Shown here: piece after piece, positions 41,099 through 60,226 of the stretch
Layout: the number at the start of each line of letters is the position of its first letter
Numbering within the stretch: the stretch's first letter is position 1
Source: Pseudomonadota bacterium
GTDB taxonomy: Bacteria > Pseudomonadota > Gammaproteobacteria > Pseudomonadales > Cellvibrionaceae
Length of the DNA stretch: 64,000 nt
Reading direction: 5' to 3'
Assembly (NCBI GenBank): GCA_040385335.1
Contig: JAZKHP010000021.1
Span: forward strand, 68,516-132,515
Position numbers and translations under genes: made by a program
Notes under the pieces: model-generated
Databases searched by the model: none
What the model was told of the DNA's origin: nothing
The model's input: the letters and a program-made list of their open reading frames with translations, nothing else

Positions 41099-41878
41099 AT
41101 GCATGCTGAAAACTTTATACTAAGAGATTACTTCGCTCGTATTGACTATCAAGATGTGCCTTCCGTAAATATTAAAACGCTGGCAGCGTTAATGCGTTGT
41201 CAATTGTTTTCTGTTGCTTTCGAAAACCTGGATGTTCAGGCCGGTAAAATTGTTTCCATGGTTCCAGAAGACATTGTTGAAAAAATTATAACCAGAAAAC
41301 GCGGTGGCTATTGCTATGAAGTTAATGGGTTGTTTGCAATGGCTCTGGCGGCGCTCGGTTTTGAATATACTTTAATTGGTGCGCGCCCAATGTTTTATCC
41401 CGTTCGGCGCCCTAAAACTCACATGGTGCTTGTCGTAAAAGCAGAAAATCAATTGTGGTTATGTGATTTGGGTTTCGGTAGTTTTGGTATCCGGGCGCCA
41501 TTGGCATTGGAAAAGCTGAACGTGGCGATTCGGCAAGATGATGATTTTTTCAAACTAATAAAAACCGAGGCAGGTGAGTTTATCATGCAAGCTTTGGTGG
41601 ATGGCCAATGGACGAATCAATATGGTTTTGATTTGTATCCCCACGAATGGATAGATTTTTACCCTGCGAACTTTTTAAATTCAAAACATCCAGATGCCAT
41701 TTTTGTGCAGAAGCTATTAATAGTAAAGCATAACCCCAAGGGGCGAAAAATTTTATTGGGAAATCGTTTAAAGATAATGGAAAATGGTATCGTGGAATTT
41801 AAAGATTTGTCAGATGAGGAGGTCCATAAAATATTGCAGGCTGAGTTCGGGTTATGTGTCGAGCAAGTTAGCAGTTAA
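41099..41878 (+). CDS. Arylamine N-acetyltransferase family protein
   Basis: 'AFENLD', 'RKRGGYCYEVN' (Cys), 'THMVL' (His), 'LCDLGFG' (Asp). Confidence 0.9.
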   Translation: MHAENFILRDYFARIDYQDVPSVNIKTLAALMRCQLFSVAFENLDVQAGKIVSMVPEDIVEKIITRKRGGYCYEVNGLFAMALAALGFEYTLIGARPMFYPVRRPKTHMVLVVKAENQLWLCDLGFGSFGIRAPLALEKLNVAIRQDDDFFKLIKTEAGEFIMQALVDGQWTNQYGFDLYPHEWIDFYPANFLNSKHPDAIFVQKLLIVKHNPKGRKILLGNRLKIMENGIVEFKDLSDEEVHKILQAEFGLCVEQVSS

Positions 41879-43518: not shown

Positions 43519-43564
43519 ATCTCCTCCCGAGTAAAATTAATCATTTCAGTCTGCAATGCAATAT

Positions 43565-45064
43565 TCATTTTGCAGGTAATGTCGAAAAATGTGGATCTAC
43601 AGATTGATAACTTATTAACATTTCATAATGCCACTTGCACACGTCATAAAGAGAGTCTTCCGAGTTAAATCCAATATATTCGAACAGTGCACGATTATTG
43701 CTCGATGCAACATTAGATGATTTTTTTGATAGGTAATCCATATTCATTTTCCATACCTCAATTGAAAATGCCATAGGGTTTTCAATTGAACAACGAATGA
43801 AAGGATCTACATACGGAAATACATAGGGTGCGCAAAAGGATTTGTTACAAGTCAAGCGAATTGTCAAGCCTGTAGATACTTCGCTGATAAAGAAATCACT
43901 GGCATCCAGTATTTCACACTTGTTGTTATTGATAAATGCTTTAGCGCCAAGAATGCGATAACCTCTATTTTGTAAAAAATCACGCACGAAATGAATGGTT
44001 CCTCCTGTGTGTATATCGCTATCGAATAGTGTGTATTCGCCTTTAGGGATTTGGGTGCATTGGTCGTCCAGTGAAATGTTTCCTGCGCGGGTTTTGTACT
44101 CCAATCCACCAATTCCAAAGATGTCAAATTCGCGTGAAATATGTAAATTAAACTGCGCGTGCGTATTGGCGTCCAGGCTGATAATAGATTTAATATTTTC
44201 TTCAACAAAAGTGCGTTTCTGTTGCCTGATATTCGCTTCGTTAATTGAAGCGAAATATGGTGCCAGTATTTCTGTAAGTTTTTTTTCCAGCGGATGGTTG
44301 TTAGTGCGTAAATGCAGATCTTTTTGTAGTAGGTTAACGGGGTTGGAGTTACTCCTAATCGCAGATGATGATGCATTATTGTCACCAGCAATAAATAGAA
44401 TTCGTTCATTGCTTAATGACTTATAGCGGGTAAATTCACTTTCATAACCTGGCCTGTTTACAACGACACAATGGCCGTGAATTTCAAAGCTGGCCGCAAA
44501 ACGGGCGTTGTCAGATCCACAAATATAAAATACCGGTATGTTTTGTCGCAAGTGCAGTGCAAGATAGGCTTTTAAGCGAGTTATGACATCGGTAAAGTTT
44601 ATTGCAACCTGGTTAAAAACTCCTTCCCAAGGATCGATACTCAGCCACGGAATATCTGCAATCGCTTTCTGAATGTATAAGATTCTATGGGTTATAGGAA
44701 TAAATGATTCCTTACACTTTCCGCTAACATATTCATCATGCCCCGGTGAGAGATAACCACCCAAAACATTCCACCCCTGATTCTCCAATGTATGTTTTGC
44801 TTTATCCATAATCTCAATGTGCCCGTCATGAATTGGACAGAAGGAGCCTGTTGTTAGTAATACACAGTCTTTTTGCGATTCTCTCTGGGGATTATTAAAC
44901 CCTAATGGTGTGCATAGAACATTTAATGTGTCATCCAAATTTATGAGCTGAGCATGGGTGTCAAAGAAAAAACCAATTTCTTGAATATAGGCTAGTCCGT
45001 AGCGTTCAAATAAGTCAGCATAAAAAGCATCTCGTGTTATTTTCCAGTCAAGTTCTATAGTCAT
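43565..45064 (-). CDS. NMN/NaMN adenylyltransferase-like nucleotidyltransferase fused to a C-terminal type I PRTase-like domain
   Basis: 'TTGSFCPIHDGH' (HxGH), 'YLSPGHDEYV', 'WLSIDPWE', 'YICGSD', 'VNRPG', 'SSSAIR'; C-terminal 'YTLFDSDIHTGGTI' resembles the PRPP-binding loop. Confidence 0.7.
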   Translation of the reverse strand: MTIELDWKITRDAFYADLFERYGLAYIQEIGFFFDTHAQLINLDDTLNVLCTPLGFNNPQRESQKDCVLLTTGSFCPIHDGHIEIMDKAKHTLENQGWNVLGGYLSPGHDEYVSGKCKESFIPITHRILYIQKAIADIPWLSIDPWEGVFNQVAINFTDVITRLKAYLALHLRQNIPVFYICGSDNARFAASFEIHGHCVVVNRPGYESEFTRYKSLSNERILFIAGDNNASSSAIRSNSNPVNLLQKDLHLRTNNHPLEKKLTEILAPYFASINEANIRQQKRTFVEENIKSIISLDANTHAQFNLHISREFDIFGIGGLEYKTRAGNISLDDQCTQIPKGEYTLFDSDIHTGGTIHFVRDFLQNRGYRILGAKAFINNNKCEILDASDFFISEVSTGLTIRLTCNKSFCAPYVFPYVDPFIRCSIENPMAFSIEVWKMNMDYLSKKSSNVASSNNRALFEYIGFNSEDSLYDVCKWHYEMLISYQSVDPHFSTLPAK

Positions 45065-45078
45065 TTGGTGATACTTTC

Positions 45079-45855
45079 TTAAATAGCATTGGCTTCAAAA
45101 ATAATATCGGTACGGATAATTATTCTCGGTTCCTTATCTGCATGAGTTTGCACATCATGGCAGATCTTGTGATCAAAAATTAAAGCGTTGCCGGCAATTG
45201 CGCGCGCCTGACAAATAACTTCGTCAGCTCTTGCTTCCCTGAACCAATCGTCATGATTGCGACTCCAAATAGGTAAATTTTGTTGATCGTCGGAAATCAT
45301 TCGCGTCTCACCACCTATCCGCGAAGATGTTAAATAAATGACCACCGATTGCAGTGTTCGCAGTGAATCATCACTATAAATAAAAGCGTTATCGTAGTGG
45401 GGTAAATGTTTTCCTTCGCACTCATACTTCATAAAACGAAAAATAGGAGAGCACATGACGGGTTGCCATTGCCTGCGTTCTTTATCACCTTGCCACCAAT
45501 CTGTAGCGGACTTTTCATCCATCTTGCGTTCGCTTACATAAGGCTTAATTTTTTCCCAAATCTGTTTGGCGAGTTCAACCGACCAAAGCGTAGCTCTTGT
45601 TGAGCCGACAACTTCATTATCCATGATAGGTTTGCCCTGAACACCCACGGGGAAAAATTGCGGTGCCCTCGCGAATAATGCGATAAGTTGCTCGCATTCA
45701 TGAATGGAAAATAAATGCTCAACAATAGTCATAAGAGGACTAATGTGTGACGCCGCATGTTTGGCCTTGTCTAATTTTGGCACTTCGCGTGGCTCCCACC
45801 CGCCTGGCAATTGCGACATAATCGGTTTGCTTGTGAGTATGAGTGAATTCATCAA
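45079..45855 (-). CDS. 2-oxoglutarate/Fe(II)-dependent oxygenase (P4H-like)
   Basis: 'FRFMKY...PHYD' (HxD), 'SVVIYL', 'GGET', 'GNALIFDHKICH' (distal His), 'IIRTD' (2OG-binding Arg). Confidence 0.85.
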   Translation of the reverse strand: MMNSLILTSKPIMSQLPGGWEPREVPKLDKAKHAASHISPLMTIVEHLFSIHECEQLIALFARAPQFFPVGVQGKPIMDNEVVGSTRATLWSVELAKQIWEKIKPYVSERKMDEKSATDWWQGDKERRQWQPVMCSPIFRFMKYECEGKHLPHYDNAFIYSDDSLRTLQSVVIYLTSSRIGGETRMISDDQQNLPIWSRNHDDWFREARADEVICQARAIAGNALIFDHKICHDVQTHADKEPRIIIRTDIIFEANAI

Positions 45856-45894: not shown

Positions 45895-46791
45895 TTAATT
45901 CCAGCCTTGAGGAGTAATTCGCTGCTGTACATCAATAAAATGAGCGGGATTTCCTACCTGATATTTATGTGCATTTTTTTTGTGACATGCTTCAATAGCT
46001 GCCGCATAGAGTTTAAATAAGTGGCGATCCTGTTCTTTTAAGCTTTCATCAATACTAATATTAAAGTCTTTCATTAGTTGATACATTTCCACAAACCAAT
46101 AGGGCGCACCTATCATTTCTTCATCTACCCTTCCATCCCATACATCTCCAGCGGGAATTGCGGCAATTATTTCTTCGGGAACATCTAATTTTTTTGCAAT
46201 TTGTATTATTTCTGATTTGTGCGCATCGGCAATCGGTTGCAGGTCTACCATTGCATCGGAAGCCTTGCCAAAAAAACCAATGTAAGCACCTTCGTCACGA
46301 TTAGTGGTACCAACGACAATCGATTTAAATCCTTGTTGCTGAAGCAAGGCTGCATGAAAATATAAATTGGGAGTGCGGACAATGCTAGCTAGCTGGCCTA
46401 ACGACCATGAATTTGGCAAAAAATCTTTGGTGAGCGTTGCGCAGTACTGGTCCAGTGTTGATGATAAATCATGAACATAGTAAGTAGAGGTAGCGGATAG
46501 CTCTACAACTTTTAATCCTCGTTCTGTTGCTATGGTTTGATTAGTGGTTCCGTTGCTGTAAATTGGCATCAACAAGCCCAGAATTTTTTTTAAGGGTGAG
46601 TTGGGTTCCTTTGCAGCAGCCAATAACAGCTTATAGGTAACTGCCGAATCAATACCGCCAGAAATTCCAATCACGCAACTATCCAGGTTATGCTGCGAAA
46701 AAAATAAATTTATTTTCTGAATTTTTTCTGCGATGTATTTATCGACTTCAAAGTTACGTTTTAGCTTGGTTAACAGAATTATTGCTTTCAT
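45895..46791 (-). CDS. nadE: NH3-dependent NAD+ synthetase-like protein (no glutaminase domain)
   Basis: PP-loop 'VIGISGGIDSAV', 'VGTTNRDE..YIGFFGKASD..VDLQPIAD.HKSEI', 'P.GDVWDGRVDEEMIG..Y', 'KNAHK'. Confidence 0.82.
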   Translation of the reverse strand: MKAIILLTKLKRNFEVDKYIAEKIQKINLFFSQHNLDSCVIGISGGIDSAVTYKLLLAAAKEPNSPLKKILGLLMPIYSNGTTNQTIATERGLKVVELSATSTYYVHDLSSTLDQYCATLTKDFLPNSWSLGQLASIVRTPNLYFHAALLQQQGFKSIVVGTTNRDEGAYIGFFGKASDAMVDLQPIADAHKSEIIQIAKKLDVPEEIIAAIPAGDVWDGRVDEEMIGAPYWFVEMYQLMKDFNISIDESLKEQDRHLFKLYAAAIEACHKKNAHKYQVGNPAHFIDVQQRITPQGWN

Positions 46792-47468
46792 TATTTGGCC
46801 TTAACATCAGGGCTGCGTTTACTTACTGTAACCTCTGAGAGCTAAAGACTTTGCCTCGTGCAGAGCTGTATCTATTGGGCCAGATTAGCAGATAAAAATA
46901 AATAGCGTCAATTTGCCAATAAGTTTTATGGATGTATAGTGTCATTTAGCCACCATCTGTGCAAGAATATGATTAATTCTTAGTCGTAGCTGAAGGTAGG
47001 TTGGTGCTGATGGGGCATGTATTGATGTAAGTAGTCAGCACTGATCCTGCGTGCGGTCTGGTATCCAAGAGCCGTAACCACTTTAGCTAAAATCTGTCAC
47101 ACCATTATTGCCCTTGATTTATAGAAAACGGTTGATAACCTTCGTGGGTTAGTCTTCAATCTCCGCGACTTTGGCGCTCGCGGCGCAAGTTCTGAAGCGA
47201 CCACTGCTATTGGCGGTGTAGCTCACCTGATAAATTTTATGGGACTGATAACTTTTCTGCTATTGTTGTCGCGCGGTGTCAAGACACGGTGGAGGTGGTT
47301 GGATTTTCAATTCCGGCCACATTCGTTACGGTATTTAAAATGGATGAGTTGTTGACAGAATATACTTTTGCAGAAGTGCGCAACCAGGCAGCTGTAGGAT
47401 AGTTTAACTAGGATCTTTAATTGAAATTGCCTTTCAGTGCAATCATCTTTGCAAGGAGTTATCAGCAG

Positions 47469-48272
47469 GTGAAAGAACGAAAATTAGCATTTGAAATAAG
47501 CGATGGCCGTATCCATACGCGCTCATTGGAAGTTCATATAGTTGATCATTGTAATTTAAGGTGCGCAGAGTGCTGTTCGCTTTCGCCATTGCTTCCCGAG
47601 CGCTATGTAAAGCCGGAAGATATGCAGAAAGACTTGGCGCTTGCTACAGCAGTCTTAGCTCCAGATTATATAAAGCTGGTGGGTGGTGAGCCCTTGCTGC
47701 ACCCGGATATTCTTGAATGCTTACGCGTAGCCAAGCCTATGGCGAAGACATTATCGGTGACCACTAACGCCATCTTGCTTGAACGCATGAGCGACGAATT
47801 TTGGCAATTGGTGGATGCTTTAACGATATCGATCTATCCTTCCCTTAAGCTCGATAAGGTGATGCAACATGTTTATCGTAAAGCTGAGGCGTTCAATGTA
47901 ATACTCAATATTAAAAAGCAAGATACCTTTGTCAAAATGACGCACTGGGATGCAGTTACAGATGAACAGGAAACAAAAGCAATATTTTCCAGCTGTTGGT
48001 TAAGGGAGCGTTGTCATATTGTTGATCGGGGACGCTTTTATTTATGTACTCGACCACCACACTTCCACACATTTTATGATGGCAAAAAAGCCTTTCTTCA
48101 GGACGGAGTGGAGCTACACAATAAGCCTTCGTTATTACATGAAATTTATCAATACTTAACTCGCACCAAACCACTCGATAGTTGCTCTCGCTGTACCGGG
48201 GGTACTGGTGAAGAGCAGCCTCATATAATGATGACTAAAAATGAAATCATTCAAAGGTTGGAGCTGAAATAA
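47469..48272 (+). CDS. Radical SAM enzyme with a Cys-rich C-terminal (twitch/SPASM-like) extension
   Basis: 'CNLRCAEC' (CxxxCxxC), 'LVGGEPLLHP', 'VTTNA'; C-terminal 'SCW..RCH...YLC...SCSRC'. GTG at 47469 follows an AGGAG RBS. Confidence 0.88.
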   Translation: MKERKLAFEISDGRIHTRSLEVHIVDHCNLRCAECCSLSPLLPERYVKPEDMQKDLALATAVLAPDYIKLVGGEPLLHPDILECLRVAKPMAKTLSVTTNAILLERMSDEFWQLVDALTISIYPSLKLDKVMQHVYRKAEAFNVILNIKKQDTFVKMTHWDAVTDEQETKAIFSSCWLRERCHIVDRGRFYLCTRPPHFHTFYDGKKAFLQDGVELHNKPSLLHEIYQYLTRTKPLDSCSRCTGGTGEEQPHIMMTKNEIIQRLELK

Positions 48273-49316
48273 ATGCAACTGATTGCGAGGGGTGATCCAT
48301 TTTCTGTATTCCCCTATTACTATATTTCGGGTAGTGTTGGCCACGGAAGTACCATTTCTTCCATTGTGACTGCCCATGGTTGCGAGCAACTCGATGCTCT
48401 GGGGATAAAGCAATATTTAAATAAAAATCCCGATGATATAAGAACCTGTTTTCAGGAAATAAAAAAACTCCCCCCTAATTGTGATCTGCTGTTGGAAAAC
48501 GGTGAATTAACCCTTAGATCACAAGAGCCAATAATATCTGACAATGACAATCTTTTTGCGTTACTCGTTCAAGCATTGCGCAGAGATACAGCTAAATACT
48601 CGCGTTGTGCTCTTGCGCTGAGCGGGGGAATTGATTCCGCAATGATTCTCGCTTTAATTAAAGAAGCCGCAATAAATAATGTTGAAATCTATACGCTTGC
48701 CACGGGTATACAAGAGTATTGTGAGCTGGAAGTGACGAAACGAACTGCACGCTATTATGGTGTTAAGCTCAACGTAGTTCAGGCAAGCCAAGCAGATTTT
48801 GTTAATGCCTTACCCGATGCAATAAGCAGTTGTGAAACGCCACTGTATAATCTGCATCCTGTTTCAAAATTATTGCTGGCGCGCGCCATGAAAAATAATG
48901 GAGTCGATTGTATTATTACTGGCGATGCCGCAGATCAAGCATTCAGTGGCTCGGTTGCCAATAATTATTTGCCTATTGTGGGATCAATCATGCGCGGTGA
49001 AGGAATGGGTTTTGCATCCCCATTTTTTGATAAGCAGGTTGTTGCTTTTGGTTTATCGGTGATGGATTCTGATAAGTCTGCGCTGCGAAAATTGGGTCTA
49101 TCACTGCTGCCCGAGTTTTTACAGCACCAAAAAAAACAACCGCGTCTCGCGCCTGCGATGAATGTTAATAATTACTGGAATCAAAAATGTATTGATCAAA
49201 TTGCAAAGCAATTAAACCTGCAGCCAGATCTGCATAACGATGCATTAAAAATGCTTTGGACCACACTGGGAATGTTGGTGCACACTATCTGCGAAAAAAA
49301 ATCATGTGCGGCATAG
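48273..49316 (+). CDS. AsnB-like ATP-dependent amide ligase lacking an intact glutaminase domain
   Basis: PP-loop 'LALSGGIDSAMI', 'ITGDAAD', 'SPFFD'. N-terminus keeps only remnants ('RGDPFSVFPYYY', 'IKKLPP'); no Cys at position 2. Confidence 0.75.
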   Translation: MQLIARGDPFSVFPYYYISGSVGHGSTISSIVTAHGCEQLDALGIKQYLNKNPDDIRTCFQEIKKLPPNCDLLLENGELTLRSQEPIISDNDNLFALLVQALRRDTAKYSRCALALSGGIDSAMILALIKEAAINNVEIYTLATGIQEYCELEVTKRTARYYGVKLNVVQASQADFVNALPDAISSCETPLYNLHPVSKLLLARAMKNNGVDCIITGDAADQAFSGSVANNYLPIVGSIMRGEGMGFASPFFDKQVVAFGLSVMDSDKSALRKLGLSLLPEFLQHQKKQPRLAPAMNVNNYWNQKCIDQIAKQLNLQPDLHNDALKMLWTTLGMLVHTICEKKSCAA

Positions 49317-51079
49317 CTGGTATTGTCAACTATCGTGCACTGGATGTAGATCTTGAGCCAAGAGCCAGGATCATGTGCGATAAGCTTTACCATAGAGGTC
49401 CGGACGAACAAAATATTATTGCTTTCCCGAACATTATTATGGTTCATACGCGCCTTGCGTTGCTTGATTTAGCGCGTGGACAACAGCCATATGTCTCCAC
49501 AGATCAGCGCTATGTTATTAGCTACAATGGTGAAGTATATAATTACAGAGAGCTTCGCGCGCAATTAGAAAAATATTGGTTATTTAATACTGATTCAGAT
49601 ACTGAAGTGATACTCGCTGCTTACGTATATTGGGGTGAGTCTTGCTTAAATTATTTTAATGGTATGTTTGCATTTTTTATTTGGGACTCATTTAAAAATG
49701 AAGGTTTTGCTGCAAGGGATTTGTTAGGAATAAAGCCGTTTGTTTACCAATATAAATCTGGAGAATTTATATTTGCCTCTGAAGCAAAAGCTATAGTGGC
49801 GATACAGCCTGCTTCCCCCATGGTGAATCACAGTGCGATTATCGAATATATAGCAGCGCCTTATTTTTCTGGCGTAGAGACTTCCTTATTCGAAGGGCTT
49901 GAATATTTGCAGGCGGGGCATAGCTTAAAAATATCGAAGCAAGGTATCTATTCAAAACAATGGGGCGATTATGAGTTGTCTGCTTCATTAACTGAGAATA
50001 AAAGCACCACCGAAGAAATGTCCGAATTGCTGCTTAACGCAGTACAGCAAGCTATGATTTCTGATGCTCCGGTTGGGGCATATTTGAGTGGGGGATTTGA
50101 CTCAACGTTAATTACGGCAATTGCCAATAAACATGCGGAAAAAAAGCTTGGCGTTTTTACTATTAAATTTACCGATCAAGATAAGTTCGATTACAATAAC
50201 TCACTCATTGTTACTTCAGACGATACTCCCTACGCAATTCGCGCTGCAAAACAAATCGGCGTTAAGCAGCGCATTATCTGCGTGAATAGATCGGAGGTCA
50301 TGGATACCATTAAGAAAATTTCTTGTACTAATGATGCACTACCCGTTTGGGAGCAAGAAATTGCCCAGCATCATTTGGCTCGTATTGCTGCACTGGATTA
50401 CAAAGCTATTTTAACTGGTGATGCTGCGGATGAAACTCACTACGGCTATCCATTTTTATTGGATGCGCAGGTAACTGCATCTCCTGCAGCTATTTTGCAG
50501 CGCTTTTCTGTACCGCCATTGAAGCCGGAATTGAAAAATAATTTATTAGCTTTTTTTGATGATAAATATAAAACCCTAACCAAGGCAGCAGGGCATAGTT
50601 GGACAACGCCCTTGGATAGACATTTGGCAACGACTTATCTTATTGTTAAGCGCTGGCTACCGCGCTTACTGCATAACGGCGATGTGCATGCTATGCAACA
50701 TTCGCTTGAAGCCCGCGTTCCCTTTGCGGATATTCATCTTCTCAATATGGCAAAGAAAGTTCATCCTGCCAGCGGCTATTGCAATGGTACCGAGAAATGG
50801 CTGCTGCGCCAAAGTGCCAGGGGTTTACTTCCTGAAAGTTCGCGACTAAGAAAAAAATCCGCTCTACCAAAAGATCAGGGAACAGGAAAATTATACAAAG
50901 AAGCTGCAATAGCTTTGTTTAACTCGCATAAGGTTTTTCTTGAGAGTTTTTTTGACATGAAGCAAATGCAGGCGTTGTGTCGCTCCGATACTCTATTGAG
51001 TGAACAGCAACGTGCATTATTATTTCGTACAATATCTTTGTGTCATTGGTGTGATTACTATGGGGTTAATATTCGTTGA
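49304..51079 (+). CDS. Asparagine synthetase B-like glutamine amidotransferase
   Basis: 'MCGIAGI' (Ntn Cys), 'HRGPD', 'YNGEVYN', 'SDTEVIL', 'ARDLLGIKP', 'YLSGGFDST', 'TGDAADE', 'LEARVPFAD'. Confidence 0.9.
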   Translation: MCGIAGIVNYRALDVDLEPRARIMCDKLYHRGPDEQNIIAFPNIIMVHTRLALLDLARGQQPYVSTDQRYVISYNGEVYNYRELRAQLEKYWLFNTDSDTEVILAAYVYWGESCLNYFNGMFAFFIWDSFKNEGFAARDLLGIKPFVYQYKSGEFIFASEAKAIVAIQPASPMVNHSAIIEYIAAPYFSGVETSLFEGLEYLQAGHSLKISKQGIYSKQWGDYELSASLTENKSTTEEMSELLLNAVQQAMISDAPVGAYLSGGFDSTLITAIANKHAEKKLGVFTIKFTDQDKFDYNNSLIVTSDDTPYAIRAAKQIGVKQRIICVNRSEVMDTIKKISCTNDALPVWEQEIAQHHLARIAALDYKAILTGDAADETHYGYPFLLDAQVTASPAAILQRFSVPPLKPELKNNLLAFFDDKYKTLTKAAGHSWTTPLDRHLATTYLIVKRWLPRLLHNGDVHAMQHSLEARVPFADIHLLNMAKKVHPASGYCNGTEKWLLRQSARGLLPESSRLRKKSALPKDQGTGKLYKEAAIALFNSHKVFLESFFDMKQMQALCRSDTLLSEQQRALLFRTISLCHWCDYYGVNIR

Positions 51080-52272
51080 AGAAAATTTTATTTATTGTTA
51101 TTCCAGAAAATGGACATATAAACCCTTACATAGGCGTTGCTAAACATCTGCAAGAAAAAGGTTTTAATGTTGGGTTTTACTCGATGCACGATATATCTAC
51201 ACAATTGCTTGCTGCAGATCTCAATTGCTTTGTTGGAGAATTCATTGCCCCGCCACAGTATAGTAAAAATCATGGCAAACAATTTGCCGCAAACGTTAAG
51301 GATGCGCAATGGTTGAGATCCTGGATAAAGGAGCTATTGATTGATGGTGCAGAAGGTGGAATTGCAAACATTAAAAAAGTGTTAGACAGTTTTAACCCTG
51401 ATCTTGTCATTACCGATCCAATGATTTATTCGGCTGCAATAGCAGCAACGCTTAAGAAAGTAAAATGGGTAGCCATTTCAAATTCGCTTAATCCTGTTAT
51501 CCATGCCGAGATAAAAAGTGAGTTGTTAAATACGGTGCAGTGGCTTGATCCCTTTCGCAAAAAATTATTTCAGGATTATGGAATGGATATTCAGTGCAGC
51601 GGCTGCGATATGCTTTCTCCGTATTTAAATATTGCCTTTGTTACAGAGGAGCTTGTTGGTTGCGGCCACACAAAAGTTAATCTCGTTGGTCCCTCAATAC
51701 CGCAAGGTCGACGCGGTGATGAACAACCATTTGACTGGAAGCCGCTGGCAACTGAAGTGCCTATTATCTATATGTCCTTTGGTAGCCAAATTTACTATCA
51801 ACCTGAAATGTTCAAAATAGTATTTGCAGCAGTTCGCAATCAGCCCATTCAGCTCATTGCCGTTGTCAATGAGCTTATGCTTTCTGATGAGCTGGGCAGC
51901 ATACCTGTGAATGTTATTCTTACCCATTACGCACCACAGTTGCAGTTACTACCTAAAGCGTCCGTGATGATTACTCACGGCGGTGCCAACTCTGTTATGG
52001 AAGCCATTTATTATGGTATTCCCATGTTGATTAGTCCTATTTGCAATGATCAATTTCATCAAGGCTTTTTCATCGAGCGCAATAATATTGGCGTGCAGCT
52101 TGATTTAAATAATGCAACAGTCGAACAATGCCGGAATGTTTTAAATAGACTTTTGCGCAGTGCGGTAATTCACAATAATATGGCTCGCATTTCTCAATCT
52201 TACCAAAAAGATGGAGCATTAAATGCGGCAAATATTATCGCGGATTTTATTGCCAGGGATGAGCAGCATTGA
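51076..52272 (+). CDS. GT1 (MGT/UDP-glycosyltransferase family) glycosyltransferase
   Basis: 'GHINPYIGVAKHL', 'IYMSFGS', PSPG-like 'APQLQLLPKASVMITHGGANSVMEAIYYGIPML..PICNDQ'. TTGA overlap with the upstream gene. Confidence 0.9.
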   Translation: MKKILFIVIPENGHINPYIGVAKHLQEKGFNVGFYSMHDISTQLLAADLNCFVGEFIAPPQYSKNHGKQFAANVKDAQWLRSWIKELLIDGAEGGIANIKKVLDSFNPDLVITDPMIYSAAIAATLKKVKWVAISNSLNPVIHAEIKSELLNTVQWLDPFRKKLFQDYGMDIQCSGCDMLSPYLNIAFVTEELVGCGHTKVNLVGPSIPQGRRGDEQPFDWKPLATEVPIIYMSFGSQIYYQPEMFKIVFAAVRNQPIQLIAVVNELMLSDELGSIPVNVILTHYAPQLQLLPKASVMITHGGANSVMEAIYYGIPMLISPICNDQFHQGFFIERNNIGVQLDLNNATVEQCRNVLNRLLRSAVIHNNMARISQSYQKDGALNAANIIADFIARDEQH

Positions 52273-53234
52273 TTCCTTTAGTGATTACTGCAAAAAATGA
52301 AGAAAAGGGTATTGCGCAATGCCTTTACTCAATTTTAAGTTCGGTTGCGCTTATTGAGAATTCACATAATATATATTTCGATGTGATAGCCGTGCTTGAT
52401 GATTGCACCGATAACACCGAATCCATAGTGCGAACATTTTCGCGAATTAAAATATTAAAATCCTCTGGTGGAATTGTAACTGCACAGCGAAAATTTTACG
52501 AAGCAACCAATGCGGATTTTATTATTTTTTCTGATGCTGATATTTATGTAGAAGCACAAGCTCTGTTAGCAATTGCAGAGGTAATGCTAAAAAATGCCGA
52601 CCTTCGTATTGCGTATCCTTTAAAGCATCCCTTAAAAACATTAAAAAATAGTATTCTTGCTAAAGCGTTGTACGTATATAACAAGCACAACGGCTTTCAA
52701 ACAAAGCGGCATTACTTTAACGGCAGGCTGTTTGCCATTAGGAATTGGTTTATTCCTTCTGTTGACGAACTTCGAGAATCGATACAAAAGTTGCCGGTAT
52801 GCAAATTTTATTGCTATGAAGAGGGAATTAGAACCGATGATATTTTTCTATCGCGATTTATTTTAAACACTTTTGGTAGAGATTCTATTAAGGAAGTATC
52901 TTCGGGAGCCATATATTATCGTCCGCCTGAAACATACCCTGGTATGTATCGTACCTATAGGCGCATGCGAATGGAGATAGAGCGATTAAATAATTTGTTG
53001 CCAGAAACCGTTCCTGCGCATCAGCAAAGCGGCATCAGACAGTACGATTGCCAAGCTATAAAAAATGCAAACTTTATGGATGTATTTTATTGGTATATAT
53101 TTCGCTGTGCTTTGCAAATATGCAAGGTGCATTATGTTATTGAACGGTTTTGGTTTCAGAATTTTGCAACGAGGAGATGCCCCGCGTGGGAAACAGTAGA
53201 AGAAAGCAAGTTGCCAATACACATAGAGTTGTAA
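52269..53234 (+). CDS. GT2 (GT-A fold) glycosyltransferase
   Basis: 'LVITAKNEE', 'LDDCTDNT', DxD in 'IIFSDAD', 'RTDD'. TTGA overlap with the upstream gene. Confidence 0.82.
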   Translation: MIPLVITAKNEEKGIAQCLYSILSSVALIENSHNIYFDVIAVLDDCTDNTESIVRTFSRIKILKSSGGIVTAQRKFYEATNADFIIFSDADIYVEAQALLAIAEVMLKNADLRIAYPLKHPLKTLKNSILAKALYVYNKHNGFQTKRHYFNGRLFAIRNWFIPSVDELRESIQKLPVCKFYCYEEGIRTDDIFLSRFILNTFGRDSIKEVSSGAIYYRPPETYPGMYRTYRRMRMEIERLNNLLPETVPAHQQSGIRQYDCQAIKNANFMDVFYWYIFRCALQICKVHYVIERFWFQNFATRRCPAWETVEESKLPIHIEL

Positions 53235-54028
53235 TTCCGGAAATTACGCCACTCGAAATATGGGACTCTATAACGCCGCAAGGTATTTTATGGGATTCAA
53301 TGTATAAGCAGGATTTTCCTGAAACCCTTAAAAATGTTATTCAACAAATTCACGCTGGCTTGGCGGTGACGGCATCGAAACTGGAAATCAATCCCATTTC
53401 AAGGGCTTTCGATGCATTGTATGTTGCGGGTGGCGGCGCTCTCGATCCTCGCATTATTAATGCCCTTAAGCAGTTATCTGTTCCAATAATCGTTGCTCCG
53501 GATCCTGTTTTTTCTGGGGTTCCTGGCGGGAATAAAATTCTTGCCAATCATGGGCTGGAAGGGATTGTGATTGATCTTGGACAAACTCAAATTAAAATAG
53601 CTAACGCTGGCGAATTGCATACTTTTAAAAGGGATTTTGCTGCAATCCCCATTCGCAGTGAAACAGAAAGCGAGCAAGATGCTGTCCAGCTCCAATCATT
53701 TGTACGCTATGTTAGTAGCAGTATTGCGGAGACTATAAAAAATACAGTAAAGCCAAAAGGAATAGTGTTGGCGTTACCTTGTGATATAGATAATGACGGA
53801 GTTCTGGGTGGAAGTTCATACGCAGGCATGAAAGGGAATGCGGATTTGGTTGACTCAATTATCCATCATGCAAATTTAGAAGATGTACAGGTGTTGCTGC
53901 TGAATGATGCCGAGCTTACTGCTGCCAGTGCTCTTCACGATAAAAATGTTATTAAGTTTAATAAAATTCTTGTTATCACGCTTGGCTTTGCGGTTGGTGC
54001 AACAATATTGGAGCCAAAATGCAATTAA
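53186..54028 (+). CDS. ROK/sugar-kinase-like (actin-fold) protein with unusual motif order
   Basis: 'IVIDLGQTQIK', 'LPCDIDNDG', 'LLNDAELTAA', 'ITLGFAVGA' correspond to ROK motifs. In-frame GTG at 53186 lies 9 nt after GAGGAG. Confidence 0.72.
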   Translation: MGNSRRKQVANTHRVVIPEITPLEIWDSITPQGILWDSMYKQDFPETLKNVIQQIHAGLAVTASKLEINPISRAFDALYVAGGGALDPRIINALKQLSVPIIVAPDPVFSGVPGGNKILANHGLEGIVIDLGQTQIKIANAGELHTFKRDFAAIPIRSETESEQDAVQLQSFVRYVSSSIAETIKNTVKPKGIVLALPCDIDNDGVLGGSSYAGMKGNADLVDSIIHHANLEDVQVLLLNDAELTAASALHDKNVIKFNKILVITLGFAVGATILEPKCN

Positions 54029-54912
54029 CGAAACTCTATATTTCACCTCACTTTGACGATGTAGTTTTTTCCTGCGCGGGTAAAATTATTGCTGATGTTA
54101 AAAATGGTTTTAGGGTTGTTGTAGTAACCGTCTTTACAAAAAGTAATACGCAAGATTTGGCAATCTATGAAGCACGAAACGCAGAAAATGACGAGGCACT
54201 TTTAATTCTGGGTGCTGAGGGGATTAATTTAGATTTTTTAGACGCACCCTACCGCCATCCATTTTATAATTCATTTCGCACGCTGCTACTTGAAAGGCAT
54301 CCTTTAGATGATGTGGAGTATGTTTCGAGCATTGGAGTTGCTTTGAATGATTTATGCAATGTTATATCGCCGATGGAAGTTTATGCTCCTTTAGCTGTTG
54401 GGAGTCATATTGATCATCGCCTTTGTTTTGAAGCTACAGTTAATCATCTATCTTATCCAATCACTTTCTATGAAGATCGCCCCTATTCCTTTGCCGCTTT
54501 TGCGGTTGAAAGCAGATTAAAATCCTTGGGTGTGAGATTAGCTACAGGCCAAGAGTTATGGGAAGTTATGACACCGGAAAATATAACTAGACATCTATCA
54601 AGCCTTAGCCAATTGGTGTTTGTTGATAAATACTTGCCACCTGGAGAAACAAGAAATGAGTGCTTCGATTTAATAGCTAAAAATCTATCGGTTTTACCGA
54701 GTTTACGGTATCAAGGAGTAAAAAATATTTTCACTTACTCAATGGCTGAAGCAGAAACTATTAGTCAGGCCGTAAATGCTTACCAATCACAACTTGCGGA
54801 TTTTTGCGGAAGCTCACAGCAATTTCTATTGCAGACAGAAAATTATTCTAGTCAGATAGCGGGTAGTTCGCAGTACTCGGAACGATTTTGGAGTTTTAAG
54901 AAACTAAATTAA
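54019..54912 (+). CDS. PIG-L/LmbE-family N-deacetylase
   Basis: 'ISPHFDDVVFSCAG' (HxDD), 'LDFLDAPYR', 'GSHIDH', 'FYEDRPY', 'YQSQ'. Confidence 0.88.
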   Translation: MQLTKLYISPHFDDVVFSCAGKIIADVKNGFRVVVVTVFTKSNTQDLAIYEARNAENDEALLILGAEGINLDFLDAPYRHPFYNSFRTLLLERHPLDDVEYVSSIGVALNDLCNVISPMEVYAPLAVGSHIDHRLCFEATVNHLSYPITFYEDRPYSFAAFAVESRLKSLGVRLATGQELWEVMTPENITRHLSSLSQLVFVDKYLPPGETRNECFDLIAKNLSVLPSLRYQGVKNIFTYSMAEAETISQAVNAYQSQLADFCGSSQQFLLQTENYSSQIAGSSQYSERFWSFKKLN

Positions 54913-55255: not shown

Positions 55256-58200
55256 ATGGATATACCATTTCTTGATCATGACCTCTACTCCGAACACTAC
55301 AACGAATTACAAAGCCTATATCAGCAGGACTTGTTTCGTGATTTATGGGATAAGGCAACGCGCTGGTGGGGGCATGATCCTTGGCCCACGGCGACGCTGG
55401 AGTTATTGCGCGCACGCACGCTGAGTAACTTGGGTAATGATCGCCCGTCTGATGCATTGCTCTGGCGACTCTGGCGTAAACATCCGCAGCTACCTGGGCT
55501 TGCCCCGCTGGTGGCTGGGCTCTACCGCCGTCGCAGTCCCTTGGTTGCCTTGCGTATGCTGCCAGTTATTAAATCGCGCGCTCAACCCAATGCTAAAGAT
55601 CAAGCCTCTTTGCAGCGAGAAAAAGCAGAAATACTCATGCGCTTTCGTGATTTTGCTGCTGCAGAAGAGTGCTTGTCTGACTTGGAGGCATGTGGTGGCG
55701 ATTGGCATTGGGTGTCACTAGCTGGAGTTAAGTATGCGCAAGACGATTACCCGCAAGCGTTAATTATCCTCAACAAAACCCTCGAGCGTAATCCGCGCTA
55801 TCGTCCCGCGCTCTTGTTTAAAGCCAATATTTTGCAGTTACAACAGGATTTGACTCAGGCTATTGCTGTACTTGCTGATTTCTGGCTCATTAGTCAGTCA
55901 TTTTGGACCGGGCAATTGTTGTGCGGTTTTTATATCGAGAATCAGCAATATGCACTTGCCTATCAATGCCTGGAACGGTTAAAAACCTTGCCTGCTGTTT
56001 CCAGCAGGGATTCGGAGCGTTATTTACGTGCACTGCAAGCAGATCTGTTGTGCGCCGAGCAGCGTTACGACGAAGCGCTTAACTATATCGAGCAAAAAAG
56101 TTTTTTTGGCAAGTCGATTGTCGATTCTATTAAGCGATCAGTGAGTAGTAAAACGCGCAAGGTGCTTGATGTACCTTTCGTGCGTCAGGCTAATATGACC
56201 TGTGCCCCTGCGAGTATCACTGCAGTTGCTGCTTATTGGAAAGTAAATGTCACTCAGGCCGATGTGATTGAAGCTATTTGTTATGGTGGCACCCAAGCGG
56301 TAGATGAGCGCCGTTGGTTGGAAGAAAACGGTTGGTACGCACAGGAGTTCCAACTGAATTGCGCTACCGCTAAAAGCCTTATCGATTTGGATGTGCCAGT
56401 TTTGCTGGCCACTGTCGAGCCGGGTAGCGCCCATTTACAGGTATTAGTGGGTTACGATGAGGCCCTGGGCACCTACTTATTGCGTGACCCTTATTATCGC
56501 CGCTTGCAGGAAATGCTGATCGAATCCAGCCATGAATATTATGCTGCCTCCGGGCCGCGGGCTATGGTCATGGCGCCACTTAGTTATAGCGACAAAATCA
56601 AGTCATTAAATCTTCCTTCCGCCGCACTTTATGATTGCCTTTATCAATTAAATCGCGCCCTGAATGTTAATCAGCGCGAACAGGCTGTTGCTCAATTGCA
56701 GCAGGCCTGCCATTTGGATTCGCATCATCGTTTAACGATTACCTGTGAGCGTGCGCTGGCATTTTACGATGGCGACGAAACACGAATCCTGGCAGCTACT
56801 GAAAAGTTGCTAGCGCTTTTCCCCAAGGATGTGAACTTGCAATTGAGCAAAGCCAGCAGCCTTTATGCGCTAGGTTCTAGTAAACAAATGCTGGATTATT
56901 TACAGCCTATAGTAGAGCAAACTAATAGTCATTTTTTGGTGAAAAGCCGGCTTGCCGATCATTTGCGTCGTGATCACCGCCAACTGGTGCGCATTGAATC
57001 GCTTTACAAAAATTTGTTGAGGGCCAATCCGACTTACACCGAAAATCTCTATGCCTATGCTGGTGTTTTGTGGGACAAAGGTAATTACGCAGAAAGTTAT
57101 CAACTGTATCGCTTTGCTGCGTGTCTTGAAGATACTAACGAGCGTTATACCGAAAGTTTTTTCAAGGCTGCTCGGTATCATAATGATACGGAAAAAGGTT
57201 TAAATTTTCTGCGCGATAGATTTAAGCGTTTTGGCAATAAGTCCTCTGGTCCTGCGATATCGTTGTTTAATGCCTTGGACAGTCTGGAATTAATCAACGA
57301 AGGGCTTGCGATACTCGATCAAGCCATAGCCTTGCGCCCGGATGATGGTTGGATAAAGGTGTTTGCTGCGCGCAAATTGCTTAGCCAACAACAGACTAAT
57401 CGGGCTTTGCAATTGGCGGAGCTTGCTAAGCCGTTGGTTAGCGAAGTCCGTTACAACGAATTGGCAGCTGAAATTTTTGAATGCCAGTTAAATCCCGTTG
57501 CCGCTATTCAATGCTTTGAAAAAATTCTTCAACTGGAACCGCTGAATACCAAAGTTAACCGCAGCATGATGCGCGTGTTAATTGAGTCTGGCGAGCGCGT
57601 CAACGCTGATGTATTTATAGCGCAACAACTCGCTCGTTTTCCCGATAACTCTATGCTGCTTGAGCTTTATATTGATTGGCTCGATAAAGGAGATTATCAG
57701 GCTCGGGCCAGTGCTTATCAGCAATTTATTCAGTACCACCCCATGGATGCATGGGGCTTTCGCGGGTTAGCTGAGGCATTGTGCGATCTGGATTTATACG
57801 ATGCTGCTCTTAAAGCCGCAGAGGAAGCAATTGCGGTGGCCAATAACAGTAGTGCCAGCCATTGTCAGCATGGCAAAGTGTTGCTGGCCAAACAGCAACG
57901 CGAGGCTGCTCGTCAAAGTTTTCGCAAAGCCATTGAGTTGTCTTGCGATTACACTTATGCCTATCCATTGTTGATGCAATGTGGTTTCAATCACACAGCC
58001 CAACAGGAAGATTTACGTTTTATTTATGAACAACTAATGGCTCAGGTGAGTTATGGCGATGGCCTGCTCGAATACCAAAAAGTGGCCTGGCAACTTTTGT
58101 CTGCTGCAGAAATAGTTCGGTTTCTCGAGCATGCATTAGAGGTGCGGCCAGACCTGTGGCACTCCTGGGTCGCGCTTACTCTGGCTTATCGCACTCACGG

Positions 58201-60226
58201 GGACAACTTGAGAGCCCTACAGATTATTGAGCAGGCAGCGCAACGCTTCCCCTTGCTGCCGAGAATGTTTCTGGAACTGGCCGAAAGCCATACCTTGTTA
58301 AATCAATTGGATTCTGCAGAGCAGTATTATCGTCATGCGTTGCAACTATCGCCTGGCTGGACTACACCAGCAAATAATCTCTGCGATTTATTAGAACGGC
58401 AGGGACGTTATGAAGAGGCTATAGACATTCAGAAAGCCAGTATTGCACGCAGCCCCCTGTCTTCTACGCCTTATGGTTATCTCGCCGATTTGTTAATACG
58501 TGAGCAGCGCATTGATGAGGCAATTGCGGCATTGGAGCGCGCGCTGGAAGTAGACCCTCACTATTTATGGGGTTGGCACACTCTGTATAAATTGCAAAAT
58601 GAACGCGCGAGCGGGCAACCAGTGCTTAACAAATTGATATTGGTTTGCAAGACATTTCCCAACGATGGTGCTTTGGTACTCGCACATGTCAAGTTACTTG
58701 AAGATGATGTCAAGGCGAGCACAATACTCGCCACTTTTTTAGAAAAAAATCCGCATCATATTGATGTATGCATTCAGTACGTAAGATACCAAGTAGGCCT
58801 TGGACATATTGACCATGCGCTGCAATTTACCAGTGAAGCCTATTGGAATAATAATCGCCCGCTCACTATTTTGGCGGCTGAAGCGCAAATCTATGCTGAG
58901 AAACGCGAGATGGCTCAAGCAATAAAAAGCATGGAAGAAGTGGTACACATTAATTCAAATTTTTATGATGGCTGGCGTTATTTGGCGCGCTGGTATTGCG
59001 ATATAAATGCAATAGAGCAGGCTCAGTCCGCGATTGATCACTGTGTTAGGCTATATCCTAATGATCCCGGAGTGCTCTGTTATGCTGCCGAGCGGTTGCA
59101 GACGATTGACGGTGATAAGGATCGAGTTGGCAATTTATTGCAGCGTGCGTTCGAGCTTAACCCTATCAATCAGTATAACGGCTTGACCTATATTGATTAT
59201 ATTCTTGAGCGCGAAGAAATTGATCGTGCCGCAGAAGCATTAGCATTATTGGAGCGTCACCAAAGTAATATTTACACCCGCTACCGAGCGCTCTTGATTC
59301 ATATTGCGCGGGAAGAGTCTGCCGCTGCGCTCGATATATATCGTAGTATTTTACAAGATAAAAATAACTCCGATTGGCTCGTACAAAATGCTTGGGAAAA
59401 GCTGGGTAAGGTGAAGCAAGGGACAAGTGCTGCTTCCATTGTGCGTGAACTGCGCGCGAGTGATCAGCTGCAGGGAAGTGGTGCTGGATATTCTCTTGCG
59501 GAGTTTGAATTGCAGCAACTGGGATTCAAAAAATTCGAACAAGAATTATTGAAAAAAGTATTGAAGGATGGTTTTGACAAGCGTTATTTGGAAGCCTACA
59601 TCCGAAAATTAATCGACACTGAAGCACAATTGCCGTGGAAAATTATTGAAAAGTATCAATCGTTGTTGAGCGATGATTTGAAAAATTGGGGTTTGGTAGG
59701 CTATCTGCATGTAGTCCAAGGTCGCTGGGGTGAAGCCGTCAGCTGGTTTAAGCGCGGTTCACTGCTAACACAAGCCGAGGCCGGGTCGCTCTATTTTTAT
59801 TCGATAGCGCTGCGTGAAACTGGTCAATGGGAGAGGGCCGCAAGTGTAATGAGCGATGCGTTTAAGCGTGAGCCGGATGCTTATCGTGAGGATATTGTTG
59901 TTTGGTATGCGCTGGACCAATTGCTTGAGTTGCGCACAGCCCCGCTGGGAGAGCTGGATTATATTCGTGCAGACCAGCTTGCTAGTCTTAGCGCCTATCC
60001 TTTTAAGCTTGTCCAGCTTCTCGCCAAAACAAAAGCAAAATCTTTTGATCAGACACATATGGAATTCGCCGGTGATTATCTGGAGTGCAAGCAGACATTC
60101 CGCAAAGTCAATTCCTTATCCTGGCGGCATGCGCGAAAATTAGCTCGACGTTTGTTTGTGAGTGGTTTACAACAGCAAGGGTTTGCGCGTTGGCGTTGGT
60201 TGTTAAAAATTGCCAGTCGAATTTAA
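55256..60226 (+). CDS. 1656-aa TPR-repeat protein with an embedded C39-like cysteine peptidase domain
   Basis: 'VPFVRQANMTCAPASI' (Gln and Cys316), 'AHLQVLVGYD' (His393), 'LRDP' (Asp411), flanked by many TPR-like helical repeats; no signal peptide. Confidence 0.8.
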   Translation: MDIPFLDHDLYSEHYNELQSLYQQDLFRDLWDKATRWWGHDPWPTATLELLRARTLSNLGNDRPSDALLWRLWRKHPQLPGLAPLVAGLYRRRSPLVALRMLPVIKSRAQPNAKDQASLQREKAEILMRFRDFAAAEECLSDLEACGGDWHWVSLAGVKYAQDDYPQALIILNKTLERNPRYRPALLFKANILQLQQDLTQAIAVLADFWLISQSFWTGQLLCGFYIENQQYALAYQCLERLKTLPAVSSRDSERYLRALQADLLCAEQRYDEALNYIEQKSFFGKSIVDSIKRSVSSKTRKVLDVPFVRQANMTCAPASITAVAAYWKVNVTQADVIEAICYGGTQAVDERRWLEENGWYAQEFQLNCATAKSLIDLDVPVLLATVEPGSAHLQVLVGYDEALGTYLLRDPYYRRLQEMLIESSHEYYAASGPRAMVMAPLSYSDKIKSLNLPSAALYDCLYQLNRALNVNQREQAVAQLQQACHLDSHHRLTITCERALAFYDGDETRILAATEKLLALFPKDVNLQLSKASSLYALGSSKQMLDYLQPIVEQTNSHFLVKSRLADHLRRDHRQLVRIESLYKNLLRANPTYTENLYAYAGVLWDKGNYAESYQLYRFAACLEDTNERYTESFFKAARYHNDTEKGLNFLRDRFKRFGNKSSGPAISLFNALDSLELINEGLAILDQAIALRPDDGWIKVFAARKLLSQQQTNRALQLAELAKPLVSEVRYNELAAEIFECQLNPVAAIQCFEKILQLEPLNTKVNRSMMRVLIESGERVNADVFIAQQLARFPDNSMLLELYIDWLDKGDYQARASAYQQFIQYHPMDAWGFRGLAEALCDLDLYDAALKAAEEAIAVANNSSASHCQHGKVLLAKQQREAARQSFRKAIELSCDYTYAYPLLMQCGFNHTAQQEDLRFIYEQLMAQVSYGDGLLEYQKVAWQLLSAAEIVRFLEHALEVRPDLWHSWVALTLAYRTHGDNLRALQIIEQAAQRFPLLPRMFLELAESHTLLNQLDSAEQYYRHALQLSPGWTTPANNLCDLLERQGRYEEAIDIQKASIARSPLSSTPYGYLADLLIREQRIDEAIAALERALEVDPHYLWGWHTLYKLQNERASGQPVLNKLILVCKTFPNDGALVLAHVKLLEDDVKASTILATFLEKNPHHIDVCIQYVRYQVGLGHIDHALQFTSEAYWNNNRPLTILAAEAQIYAEKREMAQAIKSMEEVVHINSNFYDGWRYLARWYCDINAIEQAQSAIDHCVRLYPNDPGVLCYAAERLQTIDGDKDRVGNLLQRAFELNPINQYNGLTYIDYILEREEIDRAAEALALLERHQSNIYTRYRALLIHIAREESAAALDIYRSILQDKNNSDWLVQNAWEKLGKVKQGTSAASIVRELRASDQLQGSGAGYSLAEFELQQLGFKKFEQELLKKVLKDGFDKRYLEAYIRKLIDTEAQLPWKIIEKYQSLLSDDLKNWGLVGYLHVVQGRWGEAVSWFKRGSLLTQAEAGSLYFYSIALRETGQWERAASVMSDAFKREPDAYREDIVVWYALDQLLELRTAPLGELDYIRADQLASLSAYPFKLVQLLAKTKAKSFDQTHMEFAGDYLECKQTFRKVNSLSWRHARKLARRLFVSGLQQQGFARWRWLLKIASRI

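Follow-up and report, generated by a model that had tools for sequence, protein, structure and literature searches.

The 64,000-nucleotide stretch analysed here (the window) comes from a member of the Cellvibrionaceae (Pseudomonadota bacterium, assembly GCA_040385335.1, contig JAZKHP010000021.1, positions 68,516 to 132,515), whose genome assembly of 5.7 Mb is 98% complete. On the minus strand the window carries three tightly spaced genes, separated by gaps of 39 and 14 bp. The first encodes a NadE-like NAD synthetase, the second a prolyl 4-hydroxylase (P4H)-like Fe(II)/2-oxoglutarate (2OG) oxygenase, and the last a 499-residue protein in which a nicotinamide mononucleotide adenylyltransferase (NMNAT) domain is fused to a C-terminal domain with a phosphoribosyl pyrophosphate (PRPP)-loop motif (the C-domain). 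We refer to the three genes as the triad. Their positions, and those of the parts and motifs of the fusion protein, are as follows.

45895..46791 (-): NadE-like NH3-type NAD synthetase, 298 aa, first gene of the triad (Pfam NAD_synthase, E 5.5e-27)
45079..45855 (-): P4H-like Fe(II)/2OG oxygenase, 258 aa, second gene of the triad (profile, invariant residues)
43565..45064 (-): NMNAT/PRPP-loop-domain fusion protein, 499 aa, a single open reading frame (ORF)
44885..45064 (-): conserved N-terminal extension, residues 1-60 (WKIxRDxFY...GFFxD...LCTPL; alignment, model)
44339..44884 (-): NMNAT domain of eukaryotic type, residues 61-242 (Pfam, profile, fold, tree)
43568..44338 (-): C-terminal PRPP-loop domain, new family, residues 243-499 (model, family profile)
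44819..44848 (-): NMNAT motif GSFCPIHDGH, residues 73-82
44726..44761 (-): NMNAT motif GGYLSPGHDEYV, residues 102-113
44624..44647 (-): NMNAT motif WLSIDPWE, residues 140-147
44510..44524 (-): NMNAT motif ICGSD, residues 181-185
44354..44371 (-): NMNAT motif SSSAIR, residues 232-237
43997..44029 (-): PRPP-loop motif LFDSDIHTGGT, residues 346-356, aligning to VVVDDLLATGGT of human APRT

A preliminary description of the fusion gene had quoted six motifs, and all six are found in the 499-residue ORF in the order it gave. More than 249 full-length homologues of 480-530 aa are present in metagenomes and genomes, and in an alignment of 46 sequences the motif residues are invariant or nearly so. The same is true of K8, Y15, G31, F33, D35, T52 and P53 in the N-terminal extension, which is helical in the AlphaFold2 (AF2) model. 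The dN/dS ratio, computed against the nearest relative (a 79%-identical orthologue that likewise has DSD in its loop), is 0.15 for this extension, 0.08 for the NMNAT domain and 0.17 for the C-domain; both halves of the protein are under purifying selection. The Pfam match, the homologues, the invariant motifs and the purifying selection confirm that the ORF and its motifs are not due to chance. The full-length AF2 model has a pLDDT of 91.4 and a pTM of 0.91, and the latter implies that the two domains are fixed relative to each other. An Rfam scan of the window between 42 and 48 kb found no NAD riboswitch. It did match snoRNA J33 at 43556-43640 (-), over the 3' end of the fusion gene; at 24 bits (E 0.15) this match stays below the gathering score of 45, and we take it as chance.

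The partnership of the three genes extends far beyond the window. We collected 21 related loci from Gammaproteobacteria, Cytophagales, Cellvibrio, Saprospiraceae, Myxococcota, Leptospira and Iamiaceae. The oxygenase gene stands directly before the fusion gene in 20 of them, and NadE precedes both in 17. The order is the same in Gammaproteobacteria, Bacteroidota, Myxococcota, Leptospira and Actinomycetota. The NadE-like protein, the P4H-like 2OG oxygenase and the NMNAT/PRPP-loop fusion constitute a triad conserved in five phyla. Its parts are also joined to each other in various ways. NadE and the oxygenase share one stop-free reading frame at loci L013, L015, L017, L018, L019 and L020, and at L021 all three genes form a single frame of 1,208 aa. 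According to Pfam, single proteins of 1,048-1,208 aa combine NAD_synthase, 2OG-FeII_Oxy_3 and CTP_transf_like; all four domains occur in one protein in P0169, P0188 and P0198, and one oxygenase-NMNAT-C-domain protein was also confirmed.

The NadE-like protein of the window scores 93.5 bits against TIGR00552, above the cut-off of 63.65. An NAD synthetase partner, which in the Preiss-Handler pathway follows the adenylyltransferase, is present as a NadE-like gene that is either conserved next to the other triad parts or fused with them. The oxygenase has weak Pfam matches to 2OG-FeII_Oxy_3 and PhyH, and its family profile finds prolyl 4-hydroxylases as the best PDB matches (E 3.5e-5). The HxD...H iron triad and the RxxxR motif are invariant (H153, D155, H233, R244 and R248), and the family has several extra invariant Arg residues. 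Beyond the triad, no conserved neighbourhood exists in bacteria, although genes of NAD salvage are enriched. Across 20 loci we found NAMPT (4), Nudix (4, two with an NrtR DNA-binding domain), an extra NMNAT (3), PnuC (2), a NadR-type kinase (2) and ADP-ribosylglycohydrolase (ARH, 1). PADLOC did not recognise the triad as a known defence system, its sole match being to a generic 2OG model.

Two side observations concern individual bacterial loci. At a Cellvibrio locus (L005:4443-5093), a second, shorter P4H-like 2OG oxygenase of 217 aa lies between NadV and the triad. The proteobacterial metagenome-assembled genome with locus L019 has two NMNAT matches about 130 kb apart on one contig (~724.9 kb and ~855.9 kb of contig C8 of G018), in frames of 483 and 497 aa and with scores typical of the fusion family; these frames may represent paralogous fusion copies.

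The N-terminal domain had been described as an NMNAT of the eukaryotic rather than the bacterial NadD type, and this is supported here. Pfam CTP_transf_like spans residues 70-238 (E 2.5e-8). Against NCBIfam TIGR00482 (NMN/NaMN adenylyltransferase) the fusion protein scores 53.6 bits, under the curated cut-off of 112.45, and the canonical NadD of the same genome scores 165.6 bits. The (H/T)xGH motif of the HIGH superfamily is present as PIHDGH (residues 77-82; P77, H79, G81 and H82 invariant) and ISSTxxR as SSSAIR (residues 232-237; S233 and R237 invariant); SPxxDxY and WxxxDxWE are both present as well. A sequence search of PDB gave A. thaliana 9rpk (E 1.6e-12) and human NMNAT1/3 (1e-7 to 1e-6), with the best bacterial NadD at 0.56. 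With the family profile, seven eukaryotic NMNAT sequences were matched at E 9e-22 to 6e-15, the best NadD at 1.8e-5 and NadR at 0.42, and NadM was absent among the PDB matches. The Foldseek ranking of the AF2 model against PDB is similar: plant, mouse and human NMNATs come on top (E 6e-11 to 2e-7), followed by NadD (6e-7 to 9e-6); for the NMNAT and NadD structures 9rpk, 5z9r, 1kku, 5deo and 6kh2, E ranges from 6e-11 to 1e-5 and TM(target) from 0.56 to 0.70.

In a maximum-likelihood tree with NadM as the outgroup, one clade (99/98) holds the canonical NadD of the same genomes, apart from the fusion-family domains. The latter join three eukaryotic NMNATs (95/94), and the eukaryotes are their sister group (98/94); only these three eukaryotic sequences were included, two of them partial and taken from HMMER alignments. 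Grouping of the domain with ordinary NadD, which would have spoken against a eukaryotic type, was therefore not what the phylogeny returned. Altogether, profile, fold and tree support placing the NMNAT domain with eukaryotic NMNATs and not with the ordinary NadD of the same genomes, and this sister relationship bears on the origin of the eukaryotic enzyme. When the NMNAT piece alone was used in a word-based search, all matches were truncated members of the family, and no stand-alone relative was among them.

Eukaryotic NMNATs (human NMNAT1/3 and A. thaliana NaMNAT; PDB 1kku, 1nup, 9rpk) are thus the best profile, fold and tree neighbours of residues 61-242 and have HxGH, ISSTxxR, SPxxDxY and WxxxDxWE in common with them. 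However, the fusion protein is encoded by bacteria or phages and lacks the long eukaryotic insert after the CGAD motif, whereas eukaryotic NMNATs lack its conserved 60-aa N-terminal extension and 257-aa C-terminal domain. NadM-Nudix and NadR (NMNAT-RNK) likewise combine NMNAT with a second NAD-pathway domain and occur in NrtR-regulated salvage neighbourhoods, but they belong to another NMNAT clade (NadM being the outgroup of the tree) and have another partner domain.

The C-domain, modelled alone by AF2 (pLDDT 91.8), consists of an alpha/beta core with helices behind it. Searches of Pfam, NCBIfam and PHROGs gave no match to it, and the whole fusion protein has no PHROGs family either. An exhaustive HMMER scan of a 50%-identity library identified 1,047 representatives at 50% identity, 420 of them at E <= 1e-30, and almost all sit at positions ~240-500, behind an NMNAT domain. 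NAD metabolism is among the best-charted areas of biochemistry, yet this family of about 1,000 representatives, fused to a central NAD enzyme, has no model in any of the three collections. The PRPP-binding loop of type I phosphoribosyltransferases (PRTases) consists of a hydrophobic strand and two adjacent acidic residues followed by xxxTGxT. The family consensus LFDDDIHTGGT fits this pattern; the window copy has D-S at the acidic pair, and the following D350 is invariant. About 20 Asp, Arg and Glu residues are invariant in the domain in the 46-sequence alignment, and they point to catalysis.

Sequence profiles connect this loop to known enzymes at a marginal level. Compared with PDB, the C-domain profile matched only type I PRTases and PRPP synthetases (APRT, Prs, HPRT, ComF and PyrR; best E 0.013). 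The alignment spans the flexible-loop, strand and PRPP-loop region and places D348-S349 on the Asp-Asp pair of APRT. Four of the 46 family members weakly match PF00156 (E >= 0.004). In hhalign comparisons with seven PRTases of the same genome, the same loop was picked in six cases with probabilities of merely 0.4-6%, which provides no formal support for PRTase kinship. The "PRTase-like" label given to the domain in the preliminary description is consequently retained for the conserved PRPP-loop motif and the weak PRTase/Prs profile matches, but it does not extend to the fold. A PRTase fold is not demonstrated, because there is no significant PDB fold match and PF00156 does not score the C-domain; the structural comparison (AF2 and Foldseek) produced a list dominated by PRTases and Prs that did not reach significance.

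We therefore describe the C-domain as a new PRPP-loop family whose relationship to type I PRTases is local, not global. It is considered new because none of the three family collections covers it, structural comparison with PDB gave nothing significant, and only its loop region resembles PRTases. The arrangement of strand, acidic residues, xxx-TGxT loop and helix in the C-domain resembles that in type I PRTases and PRPP synthetase (APRT, OPRT, HGPRT, Prs; PF00156). On the other hand, this likeness is limited to about 35-55 residues without a significant global fold match, the acidic pattern of the C-domain is D-x-D with a free middle residue, and the C-domain has about 100 extra, largely helical C-terminal residues. 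Some family members are longer still: P0187 (705 aa) has a GNAT acetyltransferase domain after the PRPP-loop domain, and P0185 (825 aa) has about 215 further C-terminal residues.

Like the triad partnership, the occurrence of the module in phages goes beyond what had been noted earlier. Searching 50,697 phage records by tblastn with the C-domain and with the NMNAT domain gave no match, and phage homologues surfaced only via structure, profiles or the oxygenase. The C-domain model has one strong match in BFVD (E 5.5e-9, TM 0.71), a 212-aa protein of Acinetobacter phage vB_AbaM_ME3. This protein, ME3_299, is a stand-alone C-domain homologue (profile E 5.6e-19, hhalign 98%). It adjoins ME3_298, annotated as NAD synthetase, and a macrodomain gene is also near. 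A 2OG oxygenase, ME3_305, whose likeness to a Leptospira weilii protein was noted by the depositors, lies 1.3 kb from ME3_299. No NMNAT of the fusion family was found anywhere in phage ME3, and the triad is only partly present there. ME3_297 was considered as the missing NMNAT and rejected (hhalign probability 0.1%). The same phage region also holds a second, unrelated PRTase system: a Ter-type stress cluster (StiP-like annotated phosphoribosyl transferase, HAD, PRTase_2, TerD and vWA; 209-213 kb of the record, locus L035), about 6 kb from the NadE and C-domain genes and noted before (PMC7824862).

A more complete set of genes is found in Xanthomonas phage BUDD, where the gene of a 372-aa NMNAT + C-domain protein (hhalign 92.7%) comes first, then the oxygenase and then NadE, with NadM-Nudix and NAMPT a few genes past the triad. 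In IMG/VR, 13 contigs of 75-482 kb encode full-length fusions, with NadE near in eight and the oxygenase near in eight. Other neighbours on these contigs include NAD-dependent DNA ligase (3), ARH (2), NADAR, thymidylate synthase and homing endonucleases. On a 391-kb IMG/VR contig (L042) the fusion-matching region is split into two open frames, 5974-6750 and 6820-7518, of ~259 and 233 aa. From their positions they would correspond to the NMNAT part and to the C-domain, in which case fusion would not be obligatory. The location of the module beside NAD-consuming and ADP-ribose-processing genes in jumbo phages makes it a candidate counter-measure to NAD-depleting bacterial immunity.

The bacterial hosts of the triad have NAD genes of their own. 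In addition to canonical NadD and NadA, the genome of the window has a 549-aa open frame with 249 bits to NAD_synthase, which we take as a glutamine-dependent NAD synthetase because of its length. Its only PF04095 protein is NadV-like and lies beside a NadM-like gene. NadD scores above the cut-off in at least 15 of 20 genomes that carry the triad cassette. Since host genomes keep canonical NadA, NadD and NadE, the triad is accessory. A PF04095 protein (PncB or NadV) is present in only 10 of the 20 genomes and in neither of the two Leptospira isolates; the triad could still supply the phosphoribosyl transfer step that many host genomes without PF04095 lack.

Taking together the domain identities, the conserved triad with its fusions, the NAD-related neighbourhoods and the redundancy with canonical genes, we propose that the fusion protein is a subunit of a mobile accessory three-gene module that builds NAD+ by a self-contained nicotinate-type route. 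In our estimate this proposal has about an even chance of being correct. The C-domain would join a pyridine carboxylate, most simply nicotinate, to PRPP to form the mononucleotide, acting as a non-orthologous substitute for PncB. The eukaryote-type NMNAT domain would adenylylate the mononucleotide to deamido-NAD, which the NadE partner would amidate to NAD+ with NH3 and ATP. A carboxylate base is favoured because NadE is present in the triad. No simpler scheme accommodates all conserved parts apart from the oxygenase. The first two steps could just as well run in reverse, so that PRPP would be adenylylated first and the base transferred afterwards. The oxygenase might contribute an extra step, acting on the base or the nucleotide or assisting NadE, its frequent fusion partner. 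The phosphoribosyl transfer, the identity of the base, the order of steps and any role of the oxygenase are what we infer from the above observations. Bacteria might retain the module as an extra salvage route, and jumbo phages might use it to maintain the NAD+ supply during infection. Should the C-domain prove to be a nicotinate or nicotinamide PRTase, it would be a non-orthologous replacement of the known type II enzymes.

Such a module would have features in common with the Preiss-Handler pathway (PncB - NadD - NadE) and with the pncB-nadD-nadE clusters of "NAD-jumbo phages" (PMC11662467). An adenylyltransferase and NAD synthetase are shared, the pairing with the latter implies a deamido-NAD intermediate, and carriage by jumbo phages is shared too. 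In contrast, a type II PRTase (PF04095) is absent from the triad. In its place the adenylyltransferase, which is not of the NadD type, has a PRPP-loop domain of a new family attached to it, and the 2OG oxygenase is an obligate extra component. The "NAD-jumbo phage" paper and the phage X1 paper (PMC13384950) treat nadD and nadE in phages at the annotation level only. Other phage-borne NAD systems are NARP1 (Adps and Namat) and NARP2 (Nampt and Nmnat/Nudix) (bioRxiv 2024.02.11.579819), and NARP3 (PnuC and a NadR-like protein) (PMC13464706). Like these, the module is carried by phages and related to NAD; it lies near ADP-ribose-processing genes and sometimes beside the NARP2 pair. Their defining proteins, however, are not part of the triad, where NAMPT, Nudix and PnuC are merely occasional neighbours. 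The module has NadE and the oxygenase, neither of which is mentioned in the NARP1/2 preprint, and its role in counter-defence is only a candidate one. NARP3 was considered as the identity of the module and rejected, being composed of PnuC and a NadR-like protein. The module is absent from the Aravind-lab surveys of viral NAD systems, and our literature search found neither a described NadE + 2OG + NMNAT module nor a bacterial 2OG trigonelline demethylase. Within the literature searched, the module, the C-domain family and the link to the oxygenase are undescribed.

Several observations weigh against the proposed nicotinate-type route. A 2OG oxygenase does not fit into a simple Preiss-Handler scheme, although no partner accompanies the fusion gene more faithfully. 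Host genomes already have NadA, NadD and NadE, which leaves the advantage of the module without explanation. PF00156 does not find the window protein, either in the Pfam scan of the protein or in the genome-wide PF00156 scan. Foldseek gave nothing significant in PDB for the C-domain model (best E 0.04, TM 0.17-0.31), the non-significant list being dominated by APRT, OPRT, Prs and ComF. The loop of ME3_299 reads DHDIVNGIG, without the TGxT phosphate loop, and the window protein itself has Ser349 at the second acidic position.

The constant presence of the 2OG oxygenase points to a chemical step missing from current maps of the NAD pathway. Candidates for this step are the unmasking of an N-methylated or otherwise blocked pyridine such as trigonelline, the supply of ammonia to the fused NadE, and the production of an NADase-resistant NAD analogue. 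No trigonelline demethylase is known (PMC10963276), and demethylation of trigonelline by the oxygenase is a speculative option; the idea suits bacteria badly and phages even less, since the substrate for a phage has to be intracellular. One might go further and view the triad as a fourth NAD+-rebuilding route of bacteria and jumbo phages, in which a PRPP-loop family replaces PncB, a P4H-like oxygenase performs a step without precedent in NAD biosynthesis, and no prokaryotic or viral protein is closer to the eukaryotic NMNAT lineage than the NMNAT domain. We regard this wider view as doubtful, though worth stating.

The candidate steps of the oxygenase lead to the first alternative, namely that the module makes not NAD+ but a modified (e.g. 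hydroxylated) NAD analogue or another pyridine dinucleotide. The oxygenase would then act on the base, the mononucleotide or the dinucleotide, and in phages the analogue might escape defence NADases. This would account for an oxygenase that is an obligate and often fused partner with an intact catalytic triad, for its extra invariant Arg, which could bind an anionic nucleotide, and for the redundancy of the module with canonical NAD genes. Nevertheless, the module is surrounded by NAD salvage genes of the ordinary kind and by the NrtR regulator, phage copies lie beside NAD-dependent ligase, which needs authentic NAD+, and no such analogue is known. We consider an NAD analogue an unlikely product.

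The C-domain might instead be a PRPP-synthetase-like pyrophosphokinase, activating ribose-5-phosphate, or ADP-ribose as Adps does in NARP1. PRPP synthetases are indeed among its best fold and profile matches (1dkr and 8dbn, TMq 0.23-0.26; 1u9y, E 0.027), they share the DDxxxTGxT ribose-phosphate loop, and phage copies are near ADP-ribose-processing genes. Yet Prs needs two PRT-like lobes and an ATP site, and the C-domain model has one lobe only. With NAMPT a sporadic neighbour (4 of 20 loci), there is no consistent NAMPT/Namat partner, and in genomes without PncB and NadV such an activity would leave NMNAT and NadE without a source of mononucleotide. A pyrophosphokinase thus seems quite unlikely.

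It is also conceivable that the C-domain is a non-catalytic regulator of the NMNAT domain that binds PRPP or a nucleotide, as do PRT-fold PyrR and PurR. The strong divergence of its core, the variable second acidic position and the ME3 homologue with a degenerate phosphate loop would all be compatible with a binding role. Such a role is distinctly improbable given the unusually dense invariant charged residues over ~200 residues, the dN/dS of 0.17, and the C-domain also occurring as a stand-alone or split gene by NadE and the oxygenase without NMNAT (ME3, L042).

Finally, the Asp-Ser pair in the loop of the window protein had been read as a sign of altered or lost PRTase chemistry, and comparison with the family does not support this reading. 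The consensus is FDDDIHTGxT, with D348, D350, G354 and T356 invariant in the 46-sequence alignment. The middle residue is variable: of 217 homologues, 196 have D, 13 have T, 6 have S, and one each has F and V, so it differs from D in ~10% of members, and the window copy belongs to a subclade in which the position is free. Loss of PRTase chemistry in the window C-domain, on the grounds that Ser349 stands where the canonical acidic pair has its second Asp, is hence highly improbable, as S, T, F or V at this position is found in a tenth of the family and throughout a whole subclade, the flanking Asp residues and G..T are invariant, and purifying selection acts between two DSD-bearing orthologues (C-domain dN/dS 0.17).

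Other genes of the window were noted as well. A clear arylamine N-acetyltransferase is encoded at 41099-41878 (+; Pfam E 3.7e-60). After it come a maltose-O-acetyltransferase-like hexapeptide protein and, directly downstream of the fusion gene, an alpha/beta hydrolase lipoprotein. On the other side, a divergent plus-strand cluster at 47421-54912 encodes a radical SAM protein, a truncated Asn-synthase-like protein (347 aa), full AsnB (607 aa), two glycosyltransferases, a 292-aa protein and a PIG-L deacetylase. Its first three genes are syntenic with locus L001, and the cluster may be involved in glycolipid or modified-sugar biosynthesis. Further along, at 55256-60226 (+), a 1,656-aa protein has a peptidase C39-like/C70 papain-like domain near residues 304-420 and a long tetratricopeptide repeat (TPR) array.

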